The translations under genes and the position numbers were made by a program. From IMG/VR virus record IMGVR_UViG_3300033074_002003: a stretch of DNA of 64,000 bases. One strand, written 5' to 3'. The DNA comes from a virus. Below are positions 2,407 to 59,141 of this stretch, piece after piece (the first letter of the stretch is position 1; each line of letters begins with the position of its first letter). Below the pieces are notes generated by a model. It saw only the letters and a program-made list of their open reading frames with translations, was not told where the DNA came from and searched no databases.

Positions 2407-5400
2407 ATGGCGACATTTACAATCACATCATCGATCAATATCGACGCCCTACCGGCGAAGACAGGATCAGACACATACAACATCAACGGTGGATACCTGA
2501 CTGTCGATCAGGACAGTCGCTACGGGTACAACCAACACTTCAGCGGCGTCCTCGGAAACATCACGCTATCACCGACGTTGGGCGGGACGATTGAGTTCAA
2601 CGCAACGATGGTGCGGATCGTCCCATTCATCAACGGCACGGGCAACGTCCCACCCTACAACACGATCATCGTGAGCGGCAGCGCGGCATCTGGAACTCTA
2701 ATCGGCGTCTACCCGAACTTGGGCGTCGCGCCGCTCAACGTCGGCCAGCCGATGTCGGGATCGGGATACATCAAGATCAAGCAGTGGAATAGCCAGAGTT
2801 TCGGCTACGGATCTCTCACGGGAATTTCTGCGTGGTCGTCCGGTACAGACGCGCCGGGCTGGATAGAAGTTGTTGGCCTCAACGCACTGACGTGTACTGT
2901 CAACCGCCTCAACACGTTCAAGGTCAGGGGCGAGTGGTTCGAAATCTCTAGCGGGACGTCGGGAATCAACACAACGACGTACCAGATTCCCAGCAACGGA
3001 AACATCGTTCACAAGCCTGGTGTCTGGGTCGAGACAGACATATCTGGTACGTACGAGTTCTATCCTTGTGCGGGAACTCTAGCTGCACTCACTGCGTCTA
3101 TGGCCACAGACGAAGTTCGTGGGAAGGTGTGCTGGATTTCGACGGCGGGTCTCCTGCGATTCAAGCACGACGGCACGAACTCAACGGGAGGTTACCTTCC
3201 ACCCGCAGGTAGAAGAGTCAGAATTCCGAACGTGTTCTTCAGTACTTGCGCGGGTGGATGGGCGATAAATCAGCAGCCGAACGCTGTCCTTGCTACGAGG
3301 TACGATTTCACGACGACAGGCGGAGGGGTTATCGACATAGACAAAGCGTCTATGAATTGGTATCCGATCTTTCAGCAGCCATTTTCTGTCACTCTTACGA
3401 ATACTGGCATCATGACGCAGCTGCTCGTGTCAGAGATCGCGTCGCCACTCGTGTGGAGCAACGTTGGTGTGGGGCAAGAGGCGGCTAACTCGCAGATCGG
3501 TCTATCGATGGCGACTTGCTTCGCTGGTGGCACGATCACCGATAGCACTTTCACGTGTGCCTCACAGGGCTCTGGCATCTATGGTGCTTCGTTGACTGAC
3601 TTGAGCGGATTTACTTTTACTCGCGTGAAGATGCGCTCGATGATCAAGGCTTCGAACGCCGCGGCTGGGTCTTATACACTTACTCGAGTAGCCAACAGTT
3701 CGTGGGTCGATTGTACGTTCGGTGCCGGCAGAGCACTTATTACAACCTGTAACGATCTGAACTTTAGCGGGACGATCTACTTCGATAACCCAAACGGTTC
3801 TACACTCAGCGCGATCCCAATGTACGTCTGGGACATCGCCTCCAACTGTGCTCGACTGACGTTCAACGGGTTGTCTTTCGGTGGGTTGAACCTCGCACAC
3901 CCATACAGCGGAATCCTCAACGTTGGCGCAGCGGGTTGTACTGACATCAAGCTCAGAAATCTCGGCACGCCCTCTGCGTCTCTTGATATGGGTGCCGCGC
4001 GTGTAGATGATGCTCCCTGGACGCGCGTCACGACGACAGCGACAGTTACTTCGTCAAATCACGGTTTGAAAGCAAACGATATCATCTATGCTGTCGTAAC
4101 AAGTGACCCGGGCACAATTTCTGTCGCGGCAAAAACTGTCGTGTCGGCACTCGATGCAAATAGGTTCACGTTCGCGTGCACAGCTGCATCTTCGTTGACG
4201 GGCAGCATCTGTTACTACCCGACGATGGCGGCAAACCTGTTTGTCTTGGCCGCTGGTGCGGCGGCGAACGACGTAGAGGTGAAGAGGTGCTACACGCCAC
4301 ACCTCCGAACTAACCTATACACCGCTGACAACTCGACGAAGAACGTTCTGATCGAAAATGTCGTGGGTGATTATATCAACGCACCCGTCGTGACGCAGCT
4401 CAACGGGTATCACAAGGGCGTGTTCGCTACGTTGCCAATGACGGCCGGAACGTCTGTCTACGGATCACACTGGTTCGACATTTTCACAGGTGACATACCG
4501 GTGTCGCAGTCTTCTGTGTCGTGGTCCAGGCTCGGTGCTGTGGCGTACATCACGTCATCGGCTCACGCGCTGCGCACGAACGTGCAGATCAACGTAATCA
4601 CTTCTAGCCAGACAGGTACGCTTACGCTCGGCCAGAAGACGATTACAGCGATTAGCTCGTCTGTTTTCACGTTCGCGTGCGTTGCTGGTGGACCGACTGT
4701 CGGAACGCTGTCATTCAATGACTGTAGCGGCAGGATCGGTCTACTGATGAACGAGGCGACGAGCGAGACGTCTTCTTCATACACGCTTGACGCGGGCACG
4801 CCACAGTTCACGTCTGCGGGCCGCCTCTACATGCCGACGATCGGGCAGCAGATCACGTTCGAAACACCGAACTACATCATCGGTCACACGTCTTTCCCGG
4901 TGACAGAGTCGGTGATGGCTGGTGCTGCACAGACGAACTTCACACTGACGTACGCGCTTGACAAGAATGACGGTGCGGGCTACGGCTCTTTCAGAAATCT
5001 GTCTTTCATCACTACGGGTGCGGGTGGTTCTTCTGGCTCTCAGAACGTCACAATGGCTGATACAACGGGTGTTGAGGTTGGCGATTACATCTTCGGAACG
5101 AACATCGCTCCGAACTCGTTCGTCACGAGCATTGTGAACGGAACGACTGTGTCAACGTCGCTCGCAAATACAGGAGTGCCCTCAGGTCTCCTAAGATTCT
5201 GTCACCTGCCGGGAGAGACTGATATCAACTCGTATCTCGGTTTCAAGATGAAGATACGCATCTTGACCCGCGCGACGAACACCACAGCCATCACGTCACT
5301 CTATGTGCTGACGCGCAGCACGCCGAGCAGTAGAGCGTACCAGTATCCACTAGACCTCGTCCCACTCACGATCACAAACCTACGAAATCCGTCTGAGGTC

Positions 5401-6667: not shown

Positions 6668-7204
6668 ATGGAGAGAGTCGAGCTGAAGCTTGATGAAGCT
6701 AGCGACCTGACGTTCAAGGTCATGATCGAGGGGACGAAAGAGTCCGCTTCAGAAATTCGCCTCATCTGCATCGGAGACGACGTTTCGTACGTCTTCAAGG
6801 GTACAATGACAGAAGAGGTGAACGAGGTCCGCGTTGCCGTCCCCTCAATGAAGGACAAGATCAAAGAGGGTCTCTACGAGACGAAGCTGGAAGTCATCAT
6901 CGAGGGGCGGTGCATCTCACCACTCCAGTTCCTCACGAATTTCAAAGAGGGCGTGAAGGTCGTCGCAGAATCCGTGAAGATCGCTGAGAAGCCACACTCG
7001 TCCGGTCCACAGGTCACGGCTTCTGTCGTCGGGAAACCGATCGTTGTCACGAAGAGGGTCGCGCCCGTCGAAGAGCGACCAAAAGAGACTGTCACAAAAG
7101 AAGCGCAAGTAGAGGCAGTTCGACCCGCAGCGGTTGTCACCGAAGAGGCTTCACCACCTGTCACGTTGCGTCAGCTGTATTCGACCAAGAAATCGAAGAA
7201 GTAA
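6668..7204 (+). CDS. Hypothetical protein with a K/E/V-rich C-terminal tail.
   Basis: A 178-aa ORF with an aagg-type RBS upstream. Confidence 0.55.
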   Translation: MERVELKLDEASDLTFKVMIEGTKESASEIRLICIGDDVSYVFKGTMTEEVNEVRVAVPSMKDKIKEGLYETKLEVIIEGRCISPLQFLTNFKEGVKVVAESVKIAEKPHSSGPQVTASVVGKPIVVTKRVAPVEERPKETVTKEAQVEAVRPAAVVTEEASPPVTLRQLYSTKKSKK

Positions 7205-7226
7205 CGCAGGGGTCACCAGATAATTC

Positions 7227-7260
7227 TGCCCGTGTCATACGTAACCATATGACACGGGCA
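7227..7260 (+). promoter_or_regulatory. A 13-bp perfect inverted repeat (TGCCCGTGTCATA - 8 nt - TATGACACGGGCA) whose right arm contains the ATG of the patatin-like gene. Candidate translational attenuator and/or terminator for the upstream gene.
   Basis: Read directly from the sequence. The right arm spans 7248..7260 and the ATG is at 7249..7251. Confidence 0.5.
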
Positions 7261-8118
7261 TTGGTACTTTCTGGGGGTGCTTGCAAGGGAAGCTATCAGG
7301 TCGGCGTGCTCCGCAAGTGGATGCTTGAGGAGCGCCGAGAGTACGACATCTTCTGTGGAGTCTCTGTCGGCGCGCTCAATGTTTCGCTCCTCGCGCACTA
7401 CAGGGACTCGCGCGAGGCACAGTTCGCTCTCGAAAATGTGTGGAGGCATCACGTAAGCAATGACGCGATCTATCGGAGGTGGTTCCCATTTGGGAGGGTC
7501 TCTGGCCTCTGGAAACACTCGCTATTCGACTCGTCTCCCCTCAGAGAGCTCGTCATGTCTCGCATTGATGTGCAGAAGATCAGGGAGTCAGGAAAGAGAC
7601 TGTCTGTCGGAGCTGTCTGTCTTGAGACCGGAGAGAAGGTGTTCGGCACTGAGGAGGACGATAACCTCGCCGAATGGGTCCTTGCGTCAGCGAGCTATCC
7701 GGTTTTTTTCACACCCGTGAACATCGGTGGCAGGTTCTGGTTCGACGGTGCGGTGAAAAACATGACGCCGCTCGGCAGAGCGATCGAGCTCGGCGCGACC
7801 GAAATAGACATGATCGTGTGTAGCAATCCTGATGTGCAGCGTCCGGTTCCGCAGCAACAGAAGTCTTTTCCGCTGTACAGGCAGATTTCGCGCGTCGTTG
7901 ACGTGATGTCGGACCAGGTGCTGCGGACAGACATGCAAATCACGTCACTGAAGAACCAGCTCTCACGAGCCCGCGGCGACCTCAGACCAGTGACAGTCAG
8001 GTACGTCCAACCCGCAGAGCGACTCACAGAAAATTCGTTCGACTTCGATCCTAAGACGATATCCAAGATGATCGAAAAGGGCTATAGAGATGCCTCTGAT
8101 GGAACTCTGATCCTCTGA
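7249..8118 (+). CDS. Patatin-like phospholipase.
   Basis: An oxyanion GGxxKG-like motif (LSGGACKGSYQVGVL), a GxSxG nucleophile (GVSVGA) and a DGA catalytic Asp (FDGAV) appear in canonical patatin order. Confidence 0.8.
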   Translation: MTRALVLSGGACKGSYQVGVLRKWMLEERREYDIFCGVSVGALNVSLLAHYRDSREAQFALENVWRHHVSNDAIYRRWFPFGRVSGLWKHSLFDSSPLRELVMSRIDVQKIRESGKRLSVGAVCLETGEKVFGTEEDDNLAEWVLASASYPVFFTPVNIGGRFWFDGAVKNMTPLGRAIELGATEIDMIVCSNPDVQRPVPQQQKSFPLYRQISRVVDVMSDQVLRTDMQITSLKNQLSRARGDLRPVTVRYVQPAERLTENSFDFDPKTISKMIEKGYRDASDGTLIL

Positions 8119-8154
8119 TGAACATCTTCTGCACATTGTTCTACATTTGCTACA

Positions 8155-8598
8155 ATGATGCGCAAGACACAGGTCACTAGGGCGATCAAGAGGGTCGATC
8201 GCTGGCTGCGACTATCAGGTTGGGATGTTGTGCGGTCTGCAAATGTCGTTGACATGGCAGATTTTGACTCTTGCATCCTCTACAACAAGAAGACACGCAG
8301 TGACGAGTGCATGTTGTATTCTCTGCTTCACGAGTGTGGTCACGTAATCGACGGTGAAGATGCTGTGAGTAGGATTTCTTTCACGGAGCCGAAGAAGAAG
8401 AAGACGAGGAAGTGGCGAGTCGCGGTCGTTGTCGGTGAGATGCGAGCATGGGACTCTGGAGCTCGCCTAGCTTCAACACTTCGAATCAAGATCGACAGGG
8501 AGAAGTTTGACACATACAGGGCGCGCTACCTCGGAAAGTACTTCTACTGGGGCGCTCTCGGAGAAAAAAGCCTATTGAAGAGCGGATATTGTGACTGA
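8155..8598 (+). CDS. Putative HEXXH zinc metallopeptidase-like protein (ImmA/IrrE or SprT-like).
   Basis: The motif LLHECGHVIDG contains HEXXH. The ORF is 147 aa. Confidence 0.4.
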   Translation: MMRKTQVTRAIKRVDRWLRLSGWDVVRSANVVDMADFDSCILYNKKTRSDECMLYSLLHECGHVIDGEDAVSRISFTEPKKKKTRKWRVAVVVGEMRAWDSGARLASTLRIKIDREKFDTYRARYLGKYFYWGALGEKSLLKSGYCD

Positions 8599-8615
8599 GG
8601 AGAATATTTCTAATT

Positions 8616-8689
8616 GGACACGTAGTCTAACTGGCAGCGATGGCCGACTCAAAATCAGCAGTGTGTGGGTTCGAATCCCACCGTGTCCA
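8616..8689 (+). tRNA. tRNA with anticodon CAA. It has type I (short variable arm) geometry, a mismatch in the D-stem and a C-A mismatch in the anticodon stem, so it is non-canonical for tRNA-Leu.
   Basis: Hand-folded. The acceptor pairs GGACACG with CGTGTCC, the T-arm is GTGGG-TTCGAAT-CCCAC, the anticodon loop is CTCAAAA (U33, A37) and the discriminator is A. Confidence 0.5.
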
Positions 8690-8697
8690 CGACAAAT

Positions 8698-8769
8698 AGG
8701 CCCGTGATGTAGCTGGAAGCATTGACGATTCCAAATCGTTACGCGCAGGTTCGAATCCTGCCGGGTCTG
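8698..8769 (+). tRNA. tRNA-Trp (anticodon CCA).
   Basis: Hand-folded. The acceptor pairs AGGCCCG with CGGGTCT (one G-U), the D-arm is ATGT-AGCTGGAA-GCAT, the anticodon arm is GACGA-TTCCAAA-TCGTT and the T-arm is GCAGG-TTCGAAT-CCTGC. Total length is 72 nt. Confidence 0.8.
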
Positions 8770-8776
8770 CGAAAAT

Positions 8777-8848
8777 GTCCCTGTAGCTCAGGAGAAGAGC
8801 GGGCGCCTTCTAAGCGCAAGGTCGGGGGTGCGAATCCTCCCAGGGATG
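8777..8848 (+). tRNA. tRNA-Arg (anticodon TCT). CCA is encoded immediately 3' at 8849..8851.
   Basis: Hand-folded. The acceptor pairs GTCCCTG with CAGGGAT, the D-arm is GCTC-AGGAGAA-GAGC, the anticodon loop is CTTCTAA and the T-arm is GGGGG-TGCGAAT-CCTCC. Confidence 0.75.
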
Positions 8849-8862
8849 CCAAGGAAAGAAAG

Positions 8863-9039
8863 ATGCTAATTTCCCCCACGAAGAAGAAGATCGAAGAGCT
8901 GACACAGAGAATTCGCGAGATCAAGAGCGCGAAGGTCCCAGCAGAAGATGTAGCCGAACTCGAGACAGAGCTCAATCAGCTGAAAGAGCAAGTCGAGCAA
9001 GAGTCACAGTCGCAGGGTTCCGCTCTTCTCAAGGGCTGA
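8863..9039 (+). CDS. Small coiled-coil protein. The track ORF 8722..9039 would overlap the tRNAs, so the likely true start is the internal Met at 8863.
   Basis: An aaggaaag RBS precedes the ATG at 8863. The sequence has a K/E-rich heptad-like pattern. Confidence 0.4.
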   Translation: MLISPTKKKIEELTQRIREIKSAKVPAEDVAELETELNQLKEQVEQESQSQGSALLKG

Positions 9040-9069
9040 TTTTACCTCGTTTACGCTACGGAGTCTAAG

Positions 9070-10071
9070 ATGTCTGAATGGCTGCCCGAGGTTGTCAGGA
9101 TCGGTGAGGTATTTCCTCACCCAAATCGAGATCACGCCGATCCGAAGTTGAAATGTGATACGCTTTCGCTGACGATGGTTCACGGTGGCTATCCCGTGCT
9201 CTTTCGTACGGGCGAGTTCAAAGAGGGAGACCTCGCTGCCTACGTGCCGATCGATTCGGTCGTCCCAGAGAACCACCCGCTCTTTTCTTTCCTGGGTGAC
9301 AGCCGCAGGATCAAGGCGAAGAGGATGCGTGGCGTATTCTCGATGGGAATGCTCGTGAGAGCACCGGACGGTCTCGCGGAGGGTTCTTCTGTCGTCGAGG
9401 CACTGAACCTCACGAAGTACGAGCCCAAAGAAGAGACGCTGAAGATGTCGAGGGGTGTGAGCATCCCGGGACCCTCGGGATGGGAATTTCCGAAGTACAC
9501 AGACATAGAAGGAATTAGGCGCTACAAGCACGTCCTCCTCGAGGGTGAGGAAGTCGTCATCACTGAGAAGATCCACGGGCAGAACGCGCGGTTCTGTTGG
9601 GATCCCGACGACAAGAAGCTGTGGGTCGGATCTCGAACGACGATCAAGAAGCGCGACGCGACCGTGAACTGGTGGCACATCGCAAACAAGCTTGATCTGG
9701 AGGAGAAGCTCGCGAAGTTCCCACTCACGATCTTCTTCGGCGAGGTCTATGGCAAGTCGATTCAGGACCTCGCGTACGGACTCGAGCACAAGGATCTTCT
9801 CATCTTTGACACATTCGACGTGAAGACTGGCACGTACAACGACTGGGACGCGACAGTCGCTCTTGTCAAGGAAGCCGGGCTCAATCTCGTTCCGACGTTG
9901 TATCGCGGCCCGTGGCTCGGGTTTGAGGCACACAAACCCCTCTCGGAAGGAAAGTCTACGATCTGTGATCACATACGCGAAGGGTATGTGGTGAAACCCG
10001 TACACGAGCGCCGGGAACACATGGGACGGGTGATCCTGAAATGCGTGGGTGAAGATTACATGACGAGGTGA
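9070..10071 (+). CDS. RNA ligase 2 (Rnl2)-family ATP-dependent polynucleotide ligase.
   Basis: Motif I is EKIHGQN (KxHG), motif III is FFGEVYG, motif IV is LIFDTFDV and motif V is EGYVVKP. A ggag RBS lies upstream. Confidence 0.8.
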   Translation: MSEWLPEVVRIGEVFPHPNRDHADPKLKCDTLSLTMVHGGYPVLFRTGEFKEGDLAAYVPIDSVVPENHPLFSFLGDSRRIKAKRMRGVFSMGMLVRAPDGLAEGSSVVEALNLTKYEPKEETLKMSRGVSIPGPSGWEFPKYTDIEGIRRYKHVLLEGEEVVITEKIHGQNARFCWDPDDKKLWVGSRTTIKKRDATVNWWHIANKLDLEEKLAKFPLTIFFGEVYGKSIQDLAYGLEHKDLLIFDTFDVKTGTYNDWDATVALVKEAGLNLVPTLYRGPWLGFEAHKPLSEGKSTICDHIREGYVVKPVHERREHMGRVILKCVGEDYMTR

Positions 10072-10086
10072 CCGATACATATAAGA

Positions 10087-10953
10087 ATGACATACGAACG
10101 AAATTGTCCTCAATGTGCTAAGCAGATTACGTATAAAAACAAGCGTGTCTGTGAACGTGCCGAAGAATCAGGAAAACTCTGTGGATCGTGCGCTCGCAAA
10201 GAAGTATGGAATAGAGCTGATAGCTCATTTCGTTCTGATGTCACATGTGCAAAACGCAGCAAAGGGATGAAAGAAGCCTGGAAACGTCCTGATCATGGTA
10301 GAAAAAGCGAAGCATCAAAACGCTCATTCTCCGAGAAACGCAGAGCAATGCGTGAAGATCCCACTGCAGTTTACAACACAAAGAGTTTTCGTGACAAAGT
10401 ATCACAAGGTGTACGTACTGCACTTTCGAGTTCATTGACGAGGATGCTCGCGTCTGATGTTATTGCACGACGAAATGCATCAATAAAAAAGATGTGGACA
10501 GTTGAACGTCGAGATCAACATCGTGAACTGATGACTCGTTTGTGGAGTGTGACAAAAACTCCTTGGGAACACGAAAAAGGTTGTTGTGTTTCACAGTTTG
10601 AATTGAAATTTAAAGACGCTCTGCGAGAAAATGGTTTCTATCACTCTTCCGAACGTTCTGGATCGCTACGATGCATCGATCGATATATTCCTGACTACGT
10701 CGATCATGTGACAAAGCGTGTCGTTGAATTCAATGGCGACTATTGGCACTGTAATCCTAAGCATGAAGTGTTCGGAGATCCGACGTGGTACAACAAGAGT
10801 ATCAAAATGACTTCTCAAGAGAGATGGGAACATGACAAACGCCGCGAAGCAGTGATCTGCGAACATGGGTTTCACGTGATCGTAATTTGGGAAAGTGAAG
10901 CTAGTGATGAAACAAGCGTACTTTTGCGTGTCCAATCATCTGGTTCAATTTGA
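10087..10953 (+). CDS. Free-standing homing-endonuclease-like protein: N-terminal Cys cluster, NUMOD3-like repeats and a C-terminal Vsr-like nuclease domain.
   Basis: The N-terminus carries CPQC...CGSC. Repeats of the S.E.KR..S..G type follow. The C-terminus reads EFNGDYWHCNP...W..K...RWEHDKRREAVICEHGFHVIVIWESE, a Vsr/PD-(D/E)XK signature. GC content is visibly lower than in the flanks. Confidence 0.7.
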   Translation: MTYERNCPQCAKQITYKNKRVCERAEESGKLCGSCARKEVWNRADSSFRSDVTCAKRSKGMKEAWKRPDHGRKSEASKRSFSEKRRAMREDPTAVYNTKSFRDKVSQGVRTALSSSLTRMLASDVIARRNASIKKMWTVERRDQHRELMTRLWSVTKTPWEHEKGCCVSQFELKFKDALRENGFYHSSERSGSLRCIDRYIPDYVDHVTKRVVEFNGDYWHCNPKHEVFGDPTWYNKSIKMTSQERWEHDKRREAVICEHGFHVIVIWESEASDETSVLLRVQSSGSI

Positions 10954-11079
10954 GACAAGTGAAGCTCAACTAAAGACGTCCCAGAAAGTCAAATTGATAG
11001 TAGGTGAACATCTATACTGACCTTGTGTAAGTTCTGAGTGTGGTGAGCTTCAATAGCCACACAAGGAAAGGTACAGAGA

Positions 11080-11340
11080 ATGTCAGTAGAGAAGTATACG
11101 CGCCGCCGCGTCACGAACAAGGACGCGAGGATCGTCACAGAGTACAACAGCGGTGCACGCATCACCCGTACCGCTTTCAGGAGCGAGGGCACGTTGAAGG
11201 TGAGCGTGAAGACGCAGGACAACTTCACCTCGCTCAGGGTTCGCTTCCCCGATGGGTTTCACGAGTACTTCAATGGTCGCGAGGCCCGCACCATCTACCG
11301 CGCTCTGAAGGCGCACTACAGCCAGTTCGGCACCGAGTAG
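11080..11340 (+). CDS. Hypothetical small protein.
   Basis: An 86-aa ORF with an aaggaaagg RBS, followed by a terminator. Confidence 0.5.
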   Translation: MSVEKYTRRRVTNKDARIVTEYNSGARITRTAFRSEGTLKVSVKTQDNFTSLRVRFPDGFHEYFNGREARTIYRALKAHYSQFGTE

Positions 11341-11360
11341 TAGCCGTCAGAAGAAGTAGA

Positions 11361-11387
11361 GAAGGGCCCTTCTGGGCCCTTCTTGTT
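11361..11387. terminator. Bidirectional rho-independent terminator (GAAGGGCCC-ttct-GGGCCCTTC, then TTGTT) between convergent genes.
   Basis: A 9-bp GC-rich perfect stem has A-rich sequence upstream and T-rich sequence downstream. It sits between the + gene 11080..11340 and the - gene 11389..11766. Confidence 0.6.
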
Positions 11388-11388
11388 A

Positions 11389-11766
11389 TCACGTGACTTC
11401 TATCTTTCGTTTCTGCGAACCTTCTTTTTTCGGTATTTTGAGATGTAGCACGCCTGCATCGTATTTTGCTGTCATAGAGCCCACGTCATAGCTTTCGTTC
11501 ACAACGAACGTCTGCGAAATAGACTTGCTTGTCCCGACGCTTTTCTTTGCAGCGACAGAGACATTACGGCCCGTGCACTCTACGGTGATGTCCTCTTTGA
11601 GACACCCGGGAACGTCAAAGAAAATCGTGAGCCCATTTTCGTCAGTGCTCTTTTCGAACTTGTGATATCGATCGTCGTCAGCAAAGAGTTCAGAACGAAA
11701 CAGGCGAGCGAGCTGAAGTTCAGGGTACATGTTTTTCCTCCGTGCTCGCAACGATAAAACACACAC
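11389..11766 (-). CDS. Small heat-shock protein of the Hsp20/alpha-crystallin family. The start may be the internal Met, which would give 11389..11730.
   Basis: The alpha-crystallin domain is recognisable: FDVPGCLKEDITVE...VSV...SQTF..E...D...AKYDAGVLHLKIPK. Confidence 0.8.
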   Translation of the reverse strand: MCVLSLRARRKNMYPELQLARLFRSELFADDDRYHKFEKSTDENGLTIFFDVPGCLKEDITVECTGRNVSVAAKKSVGTSKSISQTFVVNESYDVGSMTAKYDAGVLHLKIPKKEGSQKRKIEVT

Positions 11767-12548
11767 AACGAAGCGTACATACCATGATCACAGAATTTGA
11801 TCGAAAAATGAAGTCTCTCGAGAAGTTTTCTTCACAGAGCGTTCCCAGTGGGACGTCTTTTGTTGTGAGGCTCGACGGTAGGTCATTTTCAAAGATGACA
11901 GAGAAGCACTTCAGGAAGCCATTTGACCCGCTGTTCAGCGCGATCATGGATAGAGTGACTGATAGCCTCGTGCGTGAGTTTGATTGCGTCGCGGCATTCA
12001 CACAGAGCGATGAGATTTCGCTGCTGTTTGCACCCGAGAACAAGCTATTTGCCGGCCGGCTCGAGAAAATTGTGAGCGTCACGGCATCGCACGCGTCCGC
12101 TGTGTTCACGAGGGCGTTCACTGACATCGTTACGTTTGACAGTCGAGTGATCGTTCCCGACAGCATCGGCGACCTGTCTTCTTACTTCACGTGGAGATTT
12201 GTGGACGGGTGCAGAAATGCGCTTAACACTGCGTGCTACTGGAACATGCGACAGTCGGGTGAGTCACGCCGTGCGGTGTCGAGGCGACTCGAGAGTGTCT
12301 CCCAGAACGAGAAGCTAGAACTTCTTGGGCAGAGGTGGGAGGACATCGATGAGAGGTTTCGGTTCGGACGTGTAACCGTGTGGGAACAATTCGAAGTAGT
12401 GGGATACAATCCCGTATTGAAAGAAGAGAGGAAGGCTACGCGCAGAGAGCTCGTGAGCTTTACCGATCCGAAGAAATTCACAGAGCTGCGTCACAAATGG
12501 TTCGCAGCAGAGAAAGAGAAAGAAGATGCGAGCAGCCTGGCTATCTGA
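11742..12548 (+). CDS. Thg1-like protein (tRNA-His guanylyltransferase family, 3'-5' nucleotidyltransferase).
   Basis: VVRLDGRSFSK...KPFD aligns with Thg1 VVRIDGKKFHEF...KPND. TQSDEISLLF aligns with GESDEYSFIL. FDSRVIVP aligns with FDSRCVAYP. WRFVDG aligns with WRYVDT. Confidence 0.9.
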   Translation: MLATIKHTQRSVHTMITEFDRKMKSLEKFSSQSVPSGTSFVVRLDGRSFSKMTEKHFRKPFDPLFSAIMDRVTDSLVREFDCVAAFTQSDEISLLFAPENKLFAGRLEKIVSVTASHASAVFTRAFTDIVTFDSRVIVPDSIGDLSSYFTWRFVDGCRNALNTACYWNMRQSGESRRAVSRRLESVSQNEKLELLGQRWEDIDERFRFGRVTVWEQFEVVGYNPVLKEERKATRRELVSFTDPKKFTELRHKWFAAEKEKEDASSLAI

Positions 12549-13323
12549 CATTCACCTCACTGACATTGCGGAGGACAGGGCTCTCGCCTTCTGTGAGAAG
12601 GTACGTGAGCACGAGTGTGATTCTGTCTTTCTCACCGGAGACATCTCAGAGTCGCCCGTCCTCCTCCAACACCTGAAGCTTCTCGACGCGAACATTCAGA
12701 AGCCGATCTACTTCGTGCTCGGAAATCACGATTTCTGGTATTCTTCTGTCCCACACATCTACAACACACTCCCACAGGCGATCTCTGGCCTGAACTTTGT
12801 GCGCTGGATGACAAATCTCGGGCCGCTGCGTCTAGATGACGGAGTCTGCGTCGTAGGTCACGACGGGTGGTATGACTGTAGGGCGGGAGACGTCCGCAAC
12901 TCTCGTTTCATCATGCCAGAGTGGAGCAAGCAGCAGGACTACCAGGGTTCTCGTACGATCGACGACATCATTGAGAAGTCCCAGGCGATGTCAAATCTCT
13001 CGATTACACATTTCAAGAAAGTATTGCCAGATGCTATCGCAAGGTTTGACAAGATCTATATCCTCACACACGTCCCACCATTTGAGGAAACGCACTATCA
13101 CGGTGGCGTGCAAGGAACACCACATTACCAGCCCTACTTTGTCAACAAGATCCTCGGTGAACTCCTCAGAACCGCCGCAAGCCTGCATCCGCGTAAGCAG
13201 TTCGTCGTCCTCGCTGGTCACAGTCACGGACGCGTGAGCAAGACAATCCTTCCGAATCTGACCGTGCACGTTGCGGGAGCACAGCATGGCGCGCCCGAAA
13301 TTCAGCCATTTGTATTCACGTGA
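12526..13323 (+). CDS. Calcineurin-like metallophosphoesterase.
   Basis: The motifs VFLTGDISE, LGNHDFW and GHSHG match metallophosphoesterase motifs I to V. The start overlaps the end of the Thg1-like gene. Confidence 0.8.
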   Translation: MRAAWLSDIHLTDIAEDRALAFCEKVREHECDSVFLTGDISESPVLLQHLKLLDANIQKPIYFVLGNHDFWYSSVPHIYNTLPQAISGLNFVRWMTNLGPLRLDDGVCVVGHDGWYDCRAGDVRNSRFIMPEWSKQQDYQGSRTIDDIIEKSQAMSNLSITHFKKVLPDAIARFDKIYILTHVPPFEETHYHGGVQGTPHYQPYFVNKILGELLRTAASLHPRKQFVVLAGHSHGRVSKTILPNLTVHVAGAQHGAPEIQPFVFT

Positions 13324-55490: not shown

Positions 55491-58400
55491 ATGACACAAG
55501 CACAGCAATCACAGGCAAAGAGTTTCAGCAGTGACGAAGTTGTAGAGAGAACGGCAGAGTATTTCGGCGGCGATAAGATGGCAGGAGCTGTATTCTTGAA
55601 GTACGCTCTGCCTGCAGATGACGGCGGTTTCTTGGAACTGTCGCCGCCTGACATGCACGCTAGACTCGCTAGAGAATTGGCTCGGATAGAGAACAGATAC
55701 TCTAACCCAATGTCCGAGGAAGAAATTCTAGGGTTGCTCAGCAGGCCCTCGCACAGGAAGCTGGGCATGGGTCCCATCATCCCGCAGGGCTCGCCGATGG
55801 CGGGCATCGGAAATACGAAGCAGTTCCAGAGCATCTCAAATTGCTTCGTGATCGACTCTCCTTACGACTCTTTCGGGGGAATCTTCCATACTGACGAGGA
55901 AGAGGCCGAGATCATGAAGAGGCGCGGGGGTGTCGGATTTGACGTCTCGACGCTTCGCCCGAAAGATGTGAAGACCTCGAACGCTGCTGGCACGACAGAC
56001 GGCATCGGTGTGTTCCTCGAGCGCTACAGCGCGACATGTCGCGGCACCGCACAGAACGGACGCCGCGGCGCGCTCATGCTCACGATCTCAATCAGACACC
56101 CCGAGATCGAGACGTTCATCAACATCAAGCGTGACCTGAAGAAGGTGACAGGCGCAAACATCTCAATCCGTGTCACAGACGACTTCATGGTTGCCGTCGA
56201 GAACGATGAATACTTCACGCTGCAGTGGCCGGTAGACGTGCCGCTCTCAGAGGCGAAGATCACTCGAGAAGTCAGAGCTCGTGACATCTGGGACCAGATC
56301 ATCGATGCGGCCTGGAACAGCGCCGAGCCCGGTGTTCTCTTCTGGGATACCGTGAAGAGAAATTCTCCGGCTGACGCATACGCCTCGGTTGGATTTAGTT
56401 CAGTCTCGACAAATCCATGTGTTGTAGGAGACACGTTGATCGCTGTTGCTGACGGTAGAAATGCTGTGTCAATTAGACAATTGGCAGAAGAGGGTCGCGA
56501 CGTACCTGTGTATTCTACTGATATTGCTACAGGAAAGGTTGAGATCAAGTGGGGAAGATCTCCTAGACTGACAAAAGTTCAAGCAGAGGTTTGGAAACTG
56601 ACACTTGATGATGGCACGTGTGTCATTGCGACACCTGATCACAAGATTTTGCTTAGAAATTTGACGTATGTGAATTTGCAGGATCTCAAGTCAGGTGACT
56701 CAATTTTCCCATTTTCGACGTTCGACTCTAATGGATATCGTCAGGTATGCAATACTGGCGTACCCATGACGGGTGGTGCAAGGCGGAACAGACGTCAATA
56801 TCGACTGATTCACGAATTTTTTAACGGGAGCACTGATTCAAAGTTGTTTGCGATTCATCATTGTGATTTTGATTCTAGAAATGACAGAATCGAAAACTTG
56901 AAAGTGATGACGCACGATGAACATCGAGAACTACATTCGCGCCTAATGATTGGTGATAATAATCCGTATCACAGGATGTCATCTGAATGGAAGCTAAAGT
57001 TTGCAAAACATTCTGGCGAATCTAATGGTAGATTTTCGGGCCACACTAACGAGCAGCTTCTAGAAGCTGGGCGTCGTGTATTCGAAGAAAATGGAAAGAT
57101 AACACGAGCTCTTTGGAAAGAATATGCCAAGAAGCACGCGTTCCCGCAATTTCTTGCAAATCAATTTAGATTTGGAAGTTGGCAAAATTTTGCCAACCAA
57201 GTCTCGAGCAATCACAAAGTTGTTTCTGTTGAAAAAATCGGTACAGAAGACGTTTACAACATCACCGTAGATGACAATCACAACTACCACGTCATCACTT
57301 CTTTGGACGAAAATGGTGTTGTCTCTTCTGGTATTTGTGTCAAAAATTGTGGGGAAATTCCTCTTTCGAGTGGGGACTCGTGCCGGCTACTCGTAATCGA
57401 TCTCACACATTTCGTCGTTTCGCCATTTACCCCCGAGGCTCACTTTGATTTCACTGAGTTTGAAAGGGTCGTCGGAAAGGCCCAGCGACTCATGGACGAT
57501 ATCGTTGACCTCGAGGTCGAAGCAGTCGACAGGATCATCGAGAAGATCGAGTCAGATCCAGAACCCGAGTACATCAAGGCACGCGAGCTCTCACTCTGGC
57601 GTCGAATCAGGGACACTGGGTTGAGAGGACGCAGGACCGGATTCGGTGTCACCGCGCTGGGCGACGCCCTCGCTCTTCTTGACCTGAAGTACGGACAGTT
57701 CGATGCGATCTCGATGACCGATCGAATCTATCGTAGCTTGGCACTGGGCGCCTACAGGTCGAGCGTCGACCTCGCGGAAGAGCGGGGCGCGTTCCCGGCA
57801 TACGATCCGAAGCTCGAGGCCGGTCACCCGTTCTTGAGTCGCATCCGCGCCGAAGATCCAGCTCTCGCAGAGAAGATGGATCGCGTCGGGCGTCGAAACA
57901 TCGCGCTCACGACAACTGCGCCGGTCGGTTCTACCTCGATGCTCACGCAGACTACAAGCGGTATCGAGCCGCTGTTCAAGCCGTTCTACGTCCGGAAAAA
58001 GAAGGTCAGCGGCGCGACGGAACCGAACGCAGAGCTGATCGTCGACGAGATGGGCGATAGGTGGCAGAAGTTCAACGTCTACCATCACTACCTCAAAGAG
58101 TGGATGGACATCACTGGGAACTCTAACATTGACGAGTCTCCGTATGCAGGTGCCTCGGCAAACGAAATCGACTGGCTTGGGTCTGTCGCGATGCAGGCCG
58201 CTGCACAGAAGTGGGTGTGTCACAGCATCTCAAAGACGTGCAACCTGCCGAAAGACGTGAGCCATGATGTTGTGTCTGACGTCTACATGAATGCGTGGAA
58301 GACGGGTTGCAAGGGCTTCACGATCTACAGGGACGAATCTAGAGACGGCGTGCTCGTGTCTGAGGACGCTGTGATGTTCGACGTGAAGAAGCGCACAGAT

Positions 58401-59141
58401 GGCGTTCCCACACGTGAGCTCGAGCGACAGGTCGAGATCGGCGAGCGCTTCGCGAAGTACATGCCGTCCGGGTATGTCTCATTCCTGCAACAGGTGAGAG
58501 ACGCGATCGCCGCGCGCAAAAACCCATCGCTCGGGGCCGTCGTAGATCGCGTAGTCGAGACGAAGCTGCACTCAGAGAAGAGGCCCAAGGAACTTCCTTG
58601 CGAAATTCACCGTGTCAACGTGAGGGCGAAAGACGACAGCGGCGACATCACGACACAGACGTACATCGTGCTTCTTGGCTTGTTGAACGGGAAGCCCTAT
58701 GAGATCTTCTGCGGCCTCTCGGAACACGTCGACGTTCCGAAGAAGTGCAAGAATGGCGTGCTCGTGAAGAATGGCAAGAAGGCCGGCGTCGCGACGTACA
58801 ACCTCAGGATCCCGATCGGAGACGATGACGACGCGATCGTGCTGAAGGACGTCGTGAATCTCTTTGAGAACGCCACATACGGTGCTTTCACGAGGATCCT
58901 GTCCCTCGCGCTGCGCCACGAGATTCCGCTGCAATTTGTTGTGGAACAGCTGCAGAAGGACAAGTACTCAGACATGCAGAGTTTTTCTCGTGTCATTGCG
59001 AGGGTCCTGAAGCACCACATTCTAGACGGTACGCCCGTCTCGGGTGAGAAGAAGTGTGATAGCTGCGGGGCCGAGGGGACGCTTGTCTACGAGGAGAAGT
59101 GTACCAAGTGCACCGCGTGCGGGAACGGGAAGTGCGGATAG
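55491..59141 (+). CDS. nrdJ: Class II (adenosylcobalamin-type, NrdJ-like) ribonucleotide reductase interrupted by an intein immediately before the catalytic NPCGE cysteine.
   Basis: ISNCFV, GGVGFDVSTLRP and a C-terminal zinc ribbon (CDSCGAEG...CTKCTACGNGKCG) are present. The extein junction reads STNP|C...N|CGEIPL. Confidence 0.85.
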   Translation: MTQAQQSQAKSFSSDEVVERTAEYFGGDKMAGAVFLKYALPADDGGFLELSPPDMHARLARELARIENRYSNPMSEEEILGLLSRPSHRKLGMGPIIPQGSPMAGIGNTKQFQSISNCFVIDSPYDSFGGIFHTDEEEAEIMKRRGGVGFDVSTLRPKDVKTSNAAGTTDGIGVFLERYSATCRGTAQNGRRGALMLTISIRHPEIETFINIKRDLKKVTGANISIRVTDDFMVAVENDEYFTLQWPVDVPLSEAKITREVRARDIWDQIIDAAWNSAEPGVLFWDTVKRNSPADAYASVGFSSVSTNPCVVGDTLIAVADGRNAVSIRQLAEEGRDVPVYSTDIATGKVEIKWGRSPRLTKVQAEVWKLTLDDGTCVIATPDHKILLRNLTYVNLQDLKSGDSIFPFSTFDSNGYRQVCNTGVPMTGGARRNRRQYRLIHEFFNGSTDSKLFAIHHCDFDSRNDRIENLKVMTHDEHRELHSRLMIGDNNPYHRMSSEWKLKFAKHSGESNGRFSGHTNEQLLEAGRRVFEENGKITRALWKEYAKKHAFPQFLANQFRFGSWQNFANQVSSNHKVVSVEKIGTEDVYNITVDDNHNYHVITSLDENGVVSSGICVKNCGEIPLSSGDSCRLLVIDLTHFVVSPFTPEAHFDFTEFERVVGKAQRLMDDIVDLEVEAVDRIIEKIESDPEPEYIKARELSLWRRIRDTGLRGRRTGFGVTALGDALALLDLKYGQFDAISMTDRIYRSLALGAYRSSVDLAEERGAFPAYDPKLEAGHPFLSRIRAEDPALAEKMDRVGRRNIALTTTAPVGSTSMLTQTTSGIEPLFKPFYVRKKKVSGATEPNAELIVDEMGDRWQKFNVYHHYLKEWMDITGNSNIDESPYAGASANEIDWLGSVAMQAAAQKWVCHSISKTCNLPKDVSHDVVSDVYMNAWKTGCKGFTIYRDESRDGVLVSEDAVMFDVKKRTDGVPTRELERQVEIGERFAKYMPSGYVSFLQQVRDAIAARKNPSLGAVVDRVVETKLHSEKRPKELPCEIHRVNVRAKDDSGDITTQTYIVLLGLLNGKPYEIFCGLSEHVDVPKKCKNGVLVKNGKKAGVATYNLRIPIGDDDDAIVLKDVVNLFENATYGAFTRILSLALRHEIPLQFVVEQLQKDKYSDMQSFSRVIARVLKHHILDGTPVSGEKKCDSCGAEGTLVYEEKCTKCTACGNGKCG
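56418..57347 (+). mobile_element. Intein of 310 aa with an embedded HNH homing-endonuclease domain inside nrdJ.
   Basis: It starts with CVVGDTLIAV (block A) and ends VYNITVDDNHNYHV...NGVVSSGICVKN followed by C (blocks F/G). HNH reads HHCDFDSRNDRIENL...HDEH. The intein is about 42% GC versus about 58% in the flanking extein. Confidence 0.8.

Follow-up and report, generated by a model that had tools for sequence, protein, structure and literature searches.

The gene at positions 8616–8689 on the + strand of the window, a stretch of 64,000 nucleotides of viral DNA (IMG/VR record IMGVR_UViG_3300033074_002003), encodes a tRNA with the anticodon CAA and a variable loop of five nucleotides in place of the long arm expected of tRNA-Leu. 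As judged from sequence analysis, this molecule is very probably a functional isoacceptor of tRNA-Leu, encoded by the phage, by which UUG is read as leucine. This assignment was made because the tRNA is well formed, carries the full set of identity elements for leucyl-tRNA synthetase (LeuRS), belongs to a covarying family, occupies the slot in which related phages carry a canonical tRNA-Leu, and is under purifying selection, and because UUG stands for leucine in the genes compared.

Three tRNA genes, directly following one another on the + strand, were called by ARAGORN in the window. The first was tRNA-Leu(CAA) at 8616–8690, with the anticodon at position 35. The Rfam model RF00005 matched 8616–8689 over its full length (model positions 1–71 of 71) with 54.3 bits, the gathering score being 29 (E = 6.6e-9). 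The gene comprises 74 nt from G1 to the discriminator A73 (8689), and the terminal CCA is not encoded. In the ARAGORN cloverleaf, the 5′ strand of the acceptor stem, GGACACG (8616–8622), pairs perfectly over 7 bp with CGUGUCC (8682–8688). The D arm (8625–8641) consists of a 3-bp stem (G10-U25, U11-A24, and C12-G23), unpaired U13 and C22 (8628 and 8638), and the loop A14 A15 C16 U17 G18 G19 C20 A20a G21. The anticodon arm (8643–8659) has the stem GCCGA/UCAGC and the loop CUCAAAA, in which the anticodon CAA lies at 8650–8652. Its stem contains the pairs G27-C43, C28-G42, G30-C40, and A31-U39, with a C29/A41 mismatch (8645/8657) between them. The variable loop AGUGU (8660–8664) ends in U48, the Levitt partner of A15, and is followed by the T arm GUGGG-UUCGAAU-CCCAC (8665–8681). 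The core of the cloverleaf (U8, A14, G18G19, U54-U55-C56, and A58) was complete by Rfam and ARAGORN. A preliminary description of this DNA had reported the CAA anticodon, the 5-nt variable loop, and mismatches in the D and anticodon stems. All of these were confirmed at their positions, and ARAGORN, which was run as a check, offered no other fold or anticodon. A reading of the reverse strand, which would give the anticodon UUG (Gln), was ruled out, since only the + strand is compatible with the T loop UUCGAAU, with the two predictors, and with the adjacent tRNAs.

The amino acid identity of the tRNA was examined through the determinants of LeuRS. For the E. coli enzyme, A73 is crucial, whereas the anticodon is not needed, and the long variable arm, although typical of tRNA-Leu, is no identity determinant (PMC9976931). 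A15-U48, G18G19, and A20a emerged from selection in vitro as essential for E. coli tRNA-Leu, and variants without the long arm remain active (PMC9976931). The window tRNA lacks the long class II arm, having the 5-nt loop instead, but carries the full reported bacterial set, namely A73, A15:U48, G18G19 in the leucine register, and A20a. It also has U8:A14 and the G18:U55/G19:C56 elbow, which are counted among the leucine-identity elements. Moreover, A36-A37-A38 is present and base 34 is a pyrimidine; both features are given as determinants of TrmL, by which base 34 of tRNA-Leu(CAA) is 2′-O-methylated (PMC9976931).

The D arm pointed in the same direction. On aligning leuX (CAA), leuZ (UAA), and leuW (UAG) of E. 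coli K-12 with the window tRNA, the same D-arm layout was observed. The D arm of leuX is GCG-A-AAUCGGUAG-A-CGC and that of the window tRNA is GUC-U-AACUGGCAG-C-GAU. In each, a stem of 3 bp and an unpaired 13:22 enclose a loop of 9 nt with the form A14 A15 Y N G18 G19 Y A20a G21, and U48 before the T stem and A73 are likewise present in the two tRNAs. Among 1262 tRNAs called by ARAGORN in 119 viral loci, this D-arm motif was found in 59% of the long-armed tRNA-Leu and 68% of the short CAA tRNAs. It was absent from all other isotype groups with at least 10 tRNAs, except for four "Lys" predictions (8%). As the motif is specific to leucine in these phage tRNAs, it was concluded that the U13/C22 "mismatch" is a hallmark of the tRNA-Leu D arm and no defect.

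The body was also scored against profiles built for each isotype with the anticodon masked and the seed family left out. A hidden Markov model of the seed family was set aside, since the search pattern fixes the T arm, which is also present in tRNA-Lys, and the D-arm table and the seed-free profiles were used instead. The window tRNA scored 41.2 bits with short tRNA-Leu of other anticodons, 28.9 with long tRNA-Leu, 28.5 with Ala, and 26.2 with Gln, the others being lower. The body of a chimeric tRNA would fit another isotype best, but here both best profiles were those of leucine and the D arm was of the leucine type. The masked-profile test may be taken to back a leucine identity only together with the D-arm result.

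The window tRNA is one member of a family of short-armed tRNA-Leu(CAA). The family was collected with the pattern CTCAAAA-N10-GTGGGTTCGAATCCCAC, that is, the anticodon loop of the window tRNA, a 10-nt spacing that enforces a short variable loop, and the T arm; in the window tRNA, the CUCAAAA loop is followed by a 5-bp stem and 5-nt variable loop and then by GUGGGUUCGAAUCCCAC. The pattern matched at least 119 contigs in IMG/VR and at least 120 contigs in GTDB (one genome per species), and among the matches listed for the latter almost all were Actinomycetota, including Mycobacterium, Nonomuraea, Actinomadura, Streptomyces, and Bifidobacterium. All extracted matches were called tRNA-Leu(CAA) of 73–79 nt by ARAGORN. 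Besides the window tRNA, 146 unique viral and cellular sequences were obtained. A73 was present in 146 of 146, U48 in 141, and the 3-bp D stem with unpaired 13:22 in 139. Except for 31:39, the positions of the acceptor, D, and anticodon stems were 96–100% paired through 4–6 pair types, compared with 43–94% when the partners were shuffled. The short-armed family is therefore a structurally constrained, evolving tRNA. Position 31:39, at the base of the anticodon loop, was unpaired (C/U, A/C, or U/U) in 39 of the 69 unique cellular copies (loci L126–L245; for example, L147 at approximately 3140–3215, − strand).

In the cellular genomes, the short tRNA-Leu(CAA) is solitary, with no other tRNA within 8 kb in 114 of 118 loci, and many copies lie on megabase-scale contigs. 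The same homologous neighbour was found approximately 850 bp away in at least 107 of the 118 loci. In Mycobacterium interjectum, the open reading frame (ORF) adjoining the tRNA encodes a response-regulator/ANTAR protein, and a DNA polymerase I-like ORF lies approximately 4 kb from the tRNA in 32 loci, as recognised by eye from the sequence and not by a family search. Owing to the solitary position, the megabase-scale contigs, and the shared neighbours, the actinobacterial gene is regarded as a vertically inherited housekeeping gene and no prophage cargo. The preliminary description had set the tRNA against the rule that bacterial tRNA-Leu is type II. The window tRNA does depart from this textbook rule, but the rule itself is not universal, as the chromosomes of Actinomycetota and the phages demonstrate.

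The distribution of arm lengths in the 119 viral loci (L004–L122) was consistent with this. The long arm was present in 85 of 85 tRNA-Ser and 39 of 42 tRNA-Tyr, whereas 193 tRNA-Leu were short and 60 were long, proportions that are biased because a short CAA tRNA was the criterion by which the loci were chosen. Seryl-tRNA synthetase depends on the long variable arm and LeuRS does not, and the loss of the arm in tRNA-Leu only matches these known synthetase rules. The short tRNA-Leu comprised 120 with the anticodon CAA (119 of them the selecting copies), 27 with UAG, 23 with UAA, 12 with GAG, 7 with CAG, and 4 with AAG. The presence of the short form with every leucine anticodon speaks for a link of the short body to leucine and not to any single codon.

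Known tRNAs place the window gene in the same context. The chromosomal copies of Actinomycetota (Mycobacterium, Nonomuraea, Streptomyces, and Bifidobacterium; L126–L245) share with it the size class, the 5-nt variable loop ending in U48, the CUCAAAA loop, the T arm GUGGG/UUCGAAU/CCCAC, the 3-bp D stem with unpaired 13:22, the D loop AAY(N)GGCAG, and A73. Unlike the window tRNA, they carry C13/A22 (69 of 69 unique copies), have no mismatch at 29:41 but many at 31:39, and stand alone in a conserved neighbourhood (response-regulator/ANTAR and polA) and not in a phage tRNA cluster; none exceeds 77% identity to the window tRNA. Near-identity searches of the tRNA in E. coli genomes and of positions 7000–10500 in GenBank phages gave no match. 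In a distant BLAST search of the tRNA cluster against GenBank phages, the tRNA-Leu of Acinetobacter phage Acibel004 and cyanophage P-RSM6 and an unannotated site in Pseudomonas phage Ep020 were found. These tRNAs (Acibel004, UAA and UAG; P-RSM6, UAA; Ep020, UAG) have a short variable loop, a GUGGG-type T arm, and a similar D loop, are 76–78 nt long by ARAGORN (CCA included where encoded), and are named tRNA-Leu where annotated. Those of Acibel004 and P-RSM6 match the window tRNA with approximately 79–80% identity across 61 nt, and that of Ep020 matches it with 75.6% across 84 nt. They differ in having other leucine anticodons and other hosts (Gammaproteobacteria and Cyanobacteria), and in the UAA copy of Acibel004 four D-stem pairs, including 13:22, are drawn by ARAGORN.

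Class II tRNA-Leu such as E. coli leuX, which has the same anticodon, resemble the window tRNA in the D-arm layout, A15:U48, A73, and A36-A37-A38. In contrast, leuX is 85 nt long with a long variable arm and has U at position 32, where the window tRNA has C32. Armless engineered E. coli tRNA-Leu and human mitochondrial tRNA-Leu(UUR) are likewise leucine acceptors whose identity lies in A73 and core tertiary elements (PMC9976931), but the former is an artificial construct and the latter an organellar tRNA with its own synthetase, whereas the window tRNA is a natural phage gene presumably served by a bacterial LeuRS.

The slot of the gene in related phages was also informative. The relatives were reached through protein homologs and contig look-ups and, in the case of L250, a metagenomic fragment, through a metagenome scan; a search for related loci in viral contigs by the RNA ligase and another by a lineage-specific D-arm pattern returned nothing. 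Relatives with an RNA ligase 63–70% identical to that of the window carry a tRNA-Leu(CAA) of 81–90 nt in the same slot, within the conserved order of patatin side, small ORFs, tRNAs, RNA ligase, Thg1-like gene, metallophosphoesterase, and gp13-like gene. Long-armed genes of 87–90 nt, with a stem-loop as variable arm, were found at L251 4551–4638, L252 3553–3639, and L255 2740–2829, and an intermediate-armed gene of 81 nt at L254 4712–4792. The variable region thus measures 5 nt in the window and in L250. In L254 it has approximately 11 nt and no clear stem, and that of L251, L252, and L255 forms a stem of 4–5 bp closed by a GAAA loop. Accordingly, the variable arm appears to be evolutionarily labile in this phage lineage. 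These long-armed tRNAs have the same anticodon as the window tRNA and, like it, are flanked by the small ORFs of the patatin side on one side and by the RNA ligase on the other, but their acceptor and D stems have diverged. The tRNA-Leu of L255 has in common with it the T arm, the adjoining GUGU, and the 5′ strand of the anticodon stem, GCCGA. The tRNA region of the relatives holds varying sets of Leu(CAA), Trp(CCA), Arg(UCU), and Pro(UGG). A 72-nt tRNA-like gene at L251 5358–5429 also has a CAA anticodon, combined with a Trp-like body (G73 and a D arm as in the tRNA-Trp of L252), 36% GC, and several stem mismatches. It lies downstream of the long tRNA-Leu(CAA) and adjoins tRNA-Arg(UCU), where L252 has tRNA-Trp, and is probably a decaying tRNA-Trp in which the anticodon was mutated from CCA to CAA.

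Selection on the window tRNA was assessed by comparison with L250, which is 93.2% identical to the window over 1333 bp (88 mismatches). Within the 236-bp tRNA cluster, a single difference was found, 8645 C to T, which gives U29-A41 in L250. As only 1 mismatch fell in the 236 bp of the cluster and 87 fell in the 1097 bp of the flanks (Fisher p = 7e-7), the tRNA genes of the window are under strong purifying selection. The tRNA-Leu also recurred without a single base change in four assemblies of the same phage, which were obtained independently from different samples and are 99.0–99.96% identical to the window; the phage is present in at least 15 contigs. Because C29/A41 was unchanged in the four assemblies, it is not an assembly error.

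The meaning of UUG in this phage was evaluated from protein alignments. The window contains 148 UUG codons, or 9.5% of its leucines. The ribonucleotide reductase (RNR) and the RNA ligase of the window were each aligned with 119 homologs. In the RNR, leucine was the majority residue in 12 of the 17 columns with UUG, and the pooled leucine fraction was 0.53 for UUG, compared with 0.50 for CUU, 0.62 for CUC, 0.52 for CUG, and 0.36 for CUA. In the RNA ligase, both UUG positions were dominated by leucine (0.93). Moreover, TGA, TAA, and TAG all end ORFs in the window. Consequently, no sign of recoding was found in these two proteins or in the ORFs of the window, UUG columns being mostly leucine and all three stop codons being in use. 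The RNR large subunit (class I/II-type; 55491–59141) contains an intein with an HNH endonuclease domain at approximately residues 318–610, and at residue 605, towards the C-terminus of the intein, a UUG falls in a column that is almost always His in the homologs, which is probably intein variation or alignment slippage.

Several points weigh against a functional tRNA-Leu. Position 29:41 is paired in 146 of 146 other family members, so that C29/A41 is unique among 147 sequences and interrupts the run of pairs from 27:43 to 30:40 that characterises the family; it could reduce function. Position 13:22 is usually C/A in the family, from which U13/C22 differs. The unconstrained minimum free energy fold of the single sequence is not the cloverleaf (z = −0.94); the support for the tRNA comes from the covariance model, the family covariation, and the conservation, and not from thermodynamics alone. 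The long-Leu profile scored only 0.4 bits above Ala, and the profile evidence by itself is weak. The UUG test cannot separate the share of the window tRNA from that of the host tRNA-Leu. In addition, the C-terminal domain of LeuRS contacts the variable arm according to a 2025 structural paper (PMC12360207), and the charging efficiency of an armless tRNA-Leu may therefore depend on the host. No host could be inferred from the tail-sheath homology.

The unique mismatch and the unfavourable fold would be accounted for if the gene were a weakened copy on the way to a pseudogene, still recognisable as tRNA-Leu but impaired by C29/A41 in folding, modification, or ribosome function, and the decaying tRNA-Trp of L251 indicates that tRNA decay occurs in this phage group. 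However, this explanation is improbable. C29/A41 is the only unusual mismatch, the other stems and the tertiary positions are intact, and the Rfam score equals those of the two neighbouring tRNAs. The sequence is fixed in four assemblies from several samples, and one base has changed in the whole tRNA cluster across a genomic divergence of 6.8%. Instead of the accumulated defects and absence of selection that mark a pseudogene, a single atypical mismatch and strong purifying selection were found, and the suggestion of a decaying pseudo-tRNA in the preliminary description gained no support. Furthermore, a C.A state is what would be expected midway from C29-G41, as in L255, to U29-A41, as in L250. 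It is plausible that C-G, C.A, and U-A form a compensatory series with the window tRNA as the intermediate, and C29/A41 would most simply be such an intermediate of a C-G to U-A switch. This private single-base change probably weakens the tRNA slightly without disabling it.

The genes around the cluster were considered next to the tRNA itself. The window is part of a 329-kb contig, as established by an identical RNR, and encodes a tail sheath, a gp13-like protein, a UvsX-like protein, DnaB, and the intein-containing RNR; its source is an uncultured T4-like jumbo phage with 54% GC. The tail sheath is approximately 26–36% identical to those of T4-like phages of many hosts, and no cultured relative is closer than approximately 36%. 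In the cluster, tRNA-Leu is followed on the + strand by tRNA-Trp(CCA) at 8698–8770 (ARAGORN; Rfam 54.1 bits), which has a very short variable region in the ARAGORN drawing and no encoded CCA, and by tRNA-Arg(UCU) at 8777–8851 (ARAGORN; Rfam 54.9 bits), which has an encoded CCA and a G27.A43 mismatch. Both are identical in L250. The cluster lies in a module at 7249–13323 that consists of a patatin-like phospholipase, small ORFs, the tRNAs, an RNA ligase, a small ORF, a Thg1-like gene, and a metallophosphoesterase, after which the gp13-like structural genes begin. The RNA ligase contains PF09414 and a PHA02142 OB domain and bears the JGI name "TIGR02306 family". An ORF of 288 aa (10087–10953) lies between the RNA ligase and Thg1-like genes, and its C-terminus bears a weak resemblance to DUF559/endonucleases. 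In L247, another assembly of the same phage, its length is 277 aa, and among the more distant relatives no ORF of comparable size was called at this place. Its product may be a mobile endonuclease. The module as a whole may serve tRNA healing, sealing, and 5′-end repair in this T4-like jumbo phage.

As the RNA ligase, the Thg1-like protein, and the metallophosphoesterase are encoded within approximately 3.5 kb of the tRNA cluster and this arrangement is kept in the relatives, the tRNA might be thought a decoy or dedicated substrate whose main task is to absorb a host anticodon nuclease, or to be cut and resealed by these enzymes, and not to translate. The observation in favour is one of adjacency only, and it is explained equally well by repair enzymes that protect useful tRNAs; no nuclease was identified. 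A decoy would need the targeted arm only, whereas conservation in this case extends to the entire cloverleaf, the LeuRS identity set, and A73. In addition, the chromosomes of Actinomycetota carry the short form as a housekeeping gene that has no repair genes around it, and the relatives hold a canonical long-armed tRNA-Leu in the same slot. A decoy role is thus very unlikely.

That the tRNA is a recoding or suppressor tRNA, or is charged with an amino acid other than leucine, as had also been proposed in the preliminary description, is hardly credible. The absence of the class II arm, the textbook hallmark of tRNA-Leu (PMC12360207), and the existence of chimeric CAA tRNAs (PMC8450103; L251 5358–5429) are in its favour, but the D arm with A15:U48 and A73 is of the leucine type and, apart from the four "Lys" predictions for the D-arm motif, absent from other isotypes, the best masked-profile match is to leucine bodies, UUG columns are leucine in homologs at the rate of CUN codons, CAA is a sense anticodon that is not complementary to any of the stop codons, all of which are used as stops, and neither G3:U70 (Ala) nor a long arm or G73 (Ser) is present. 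The chimeric gene described in PMC8450103 also has no long arm, but it scores as Met and is barely expressed, whereas the body of the window tRNA is of the leucine type and under purifying selection.

With the gene taken as a functional tRNA-Leu, a route from transcription to decoding can be proposed. A scan for promoters and terminators near the tRNA cluster gave nothing above the shuffle expectation. Because no separate signal stands out, the tRNA would share a transcript with the + strand genes on either side, giving a Leu-Trp-Arg precursor. This would be trimmed by the RNase P and the 3′ processing enzymes of the host, a host enzyme would add CCA to tRNA-Leu, and the host LeuRS would then charge it. 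During infection, tRNA-Leu(CAA) would give extra capacity for UUG, and its neighbours would do likewise for UGG and for AGA/AGG. As AGA and AGG make up 35% of the Arg codons in the window, tRNA-Arg(UCU) fits such a codon-supply role.

Whether the loss of the arm brings an advantage is a separate matter. The loss in phage tRNA-Leu could be adaptive and not neutral, yielding a tRNA that is charged by the host LeuRS but escapes either a host defence nuclease that recognises class II tRNAs or an activity of the phage itself that degrades host tRNAs; this is considered unlikely. If it were true, the short arm would act together with the ligase, Thg1-like, and phosphoesterase module, which could heal damaged tRNAs, and the 5-nt, approximately 11-nt, and stem-loop arms found in the same slot would record a recent transition.

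The apparent anomaly at 8616–8689 is removed by this analysis, and the appropriate annotation is simply tRNA-Leu(CAA), one of a supplement set of Leu, Trp, and Arg. Short-armed tRNA-Leu are already annotated as tRNA-Leu in databases, and the window gene is one more member. In the searchable literature, no paper was found that describes short-armed tRNA-Leu in phages or Actinomycetota; one paper mentions in passing that short arms occur in some of the Leu, Ser, and Tyr tRNAs of databases (PMC2265525), and the 2025 structural paper defines tRNA-Leu by the long arm (PMC12360207). The pattern may therefore be under-appreciated, though it follows from established LeuRS biochemistry. The statement that bacterial tRNA-Leu is always type II fails often, since short tRNA-Leu outnumber long ones in the sampled viral loci and a short chromosomal CAA gene is found in many Actinomycetota, and this frequent failure agrees with LeuRS biochemistry that is decades old. 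This is relevant to annotation pipelines and to scans in which conflicts between anticodon and architecture are flagged as candidate recoding. Moreover, these genes provide natural test cases of how LeuRS, EF-Tu, and the ribosome handle a tRNA-Leu with and without its arm.

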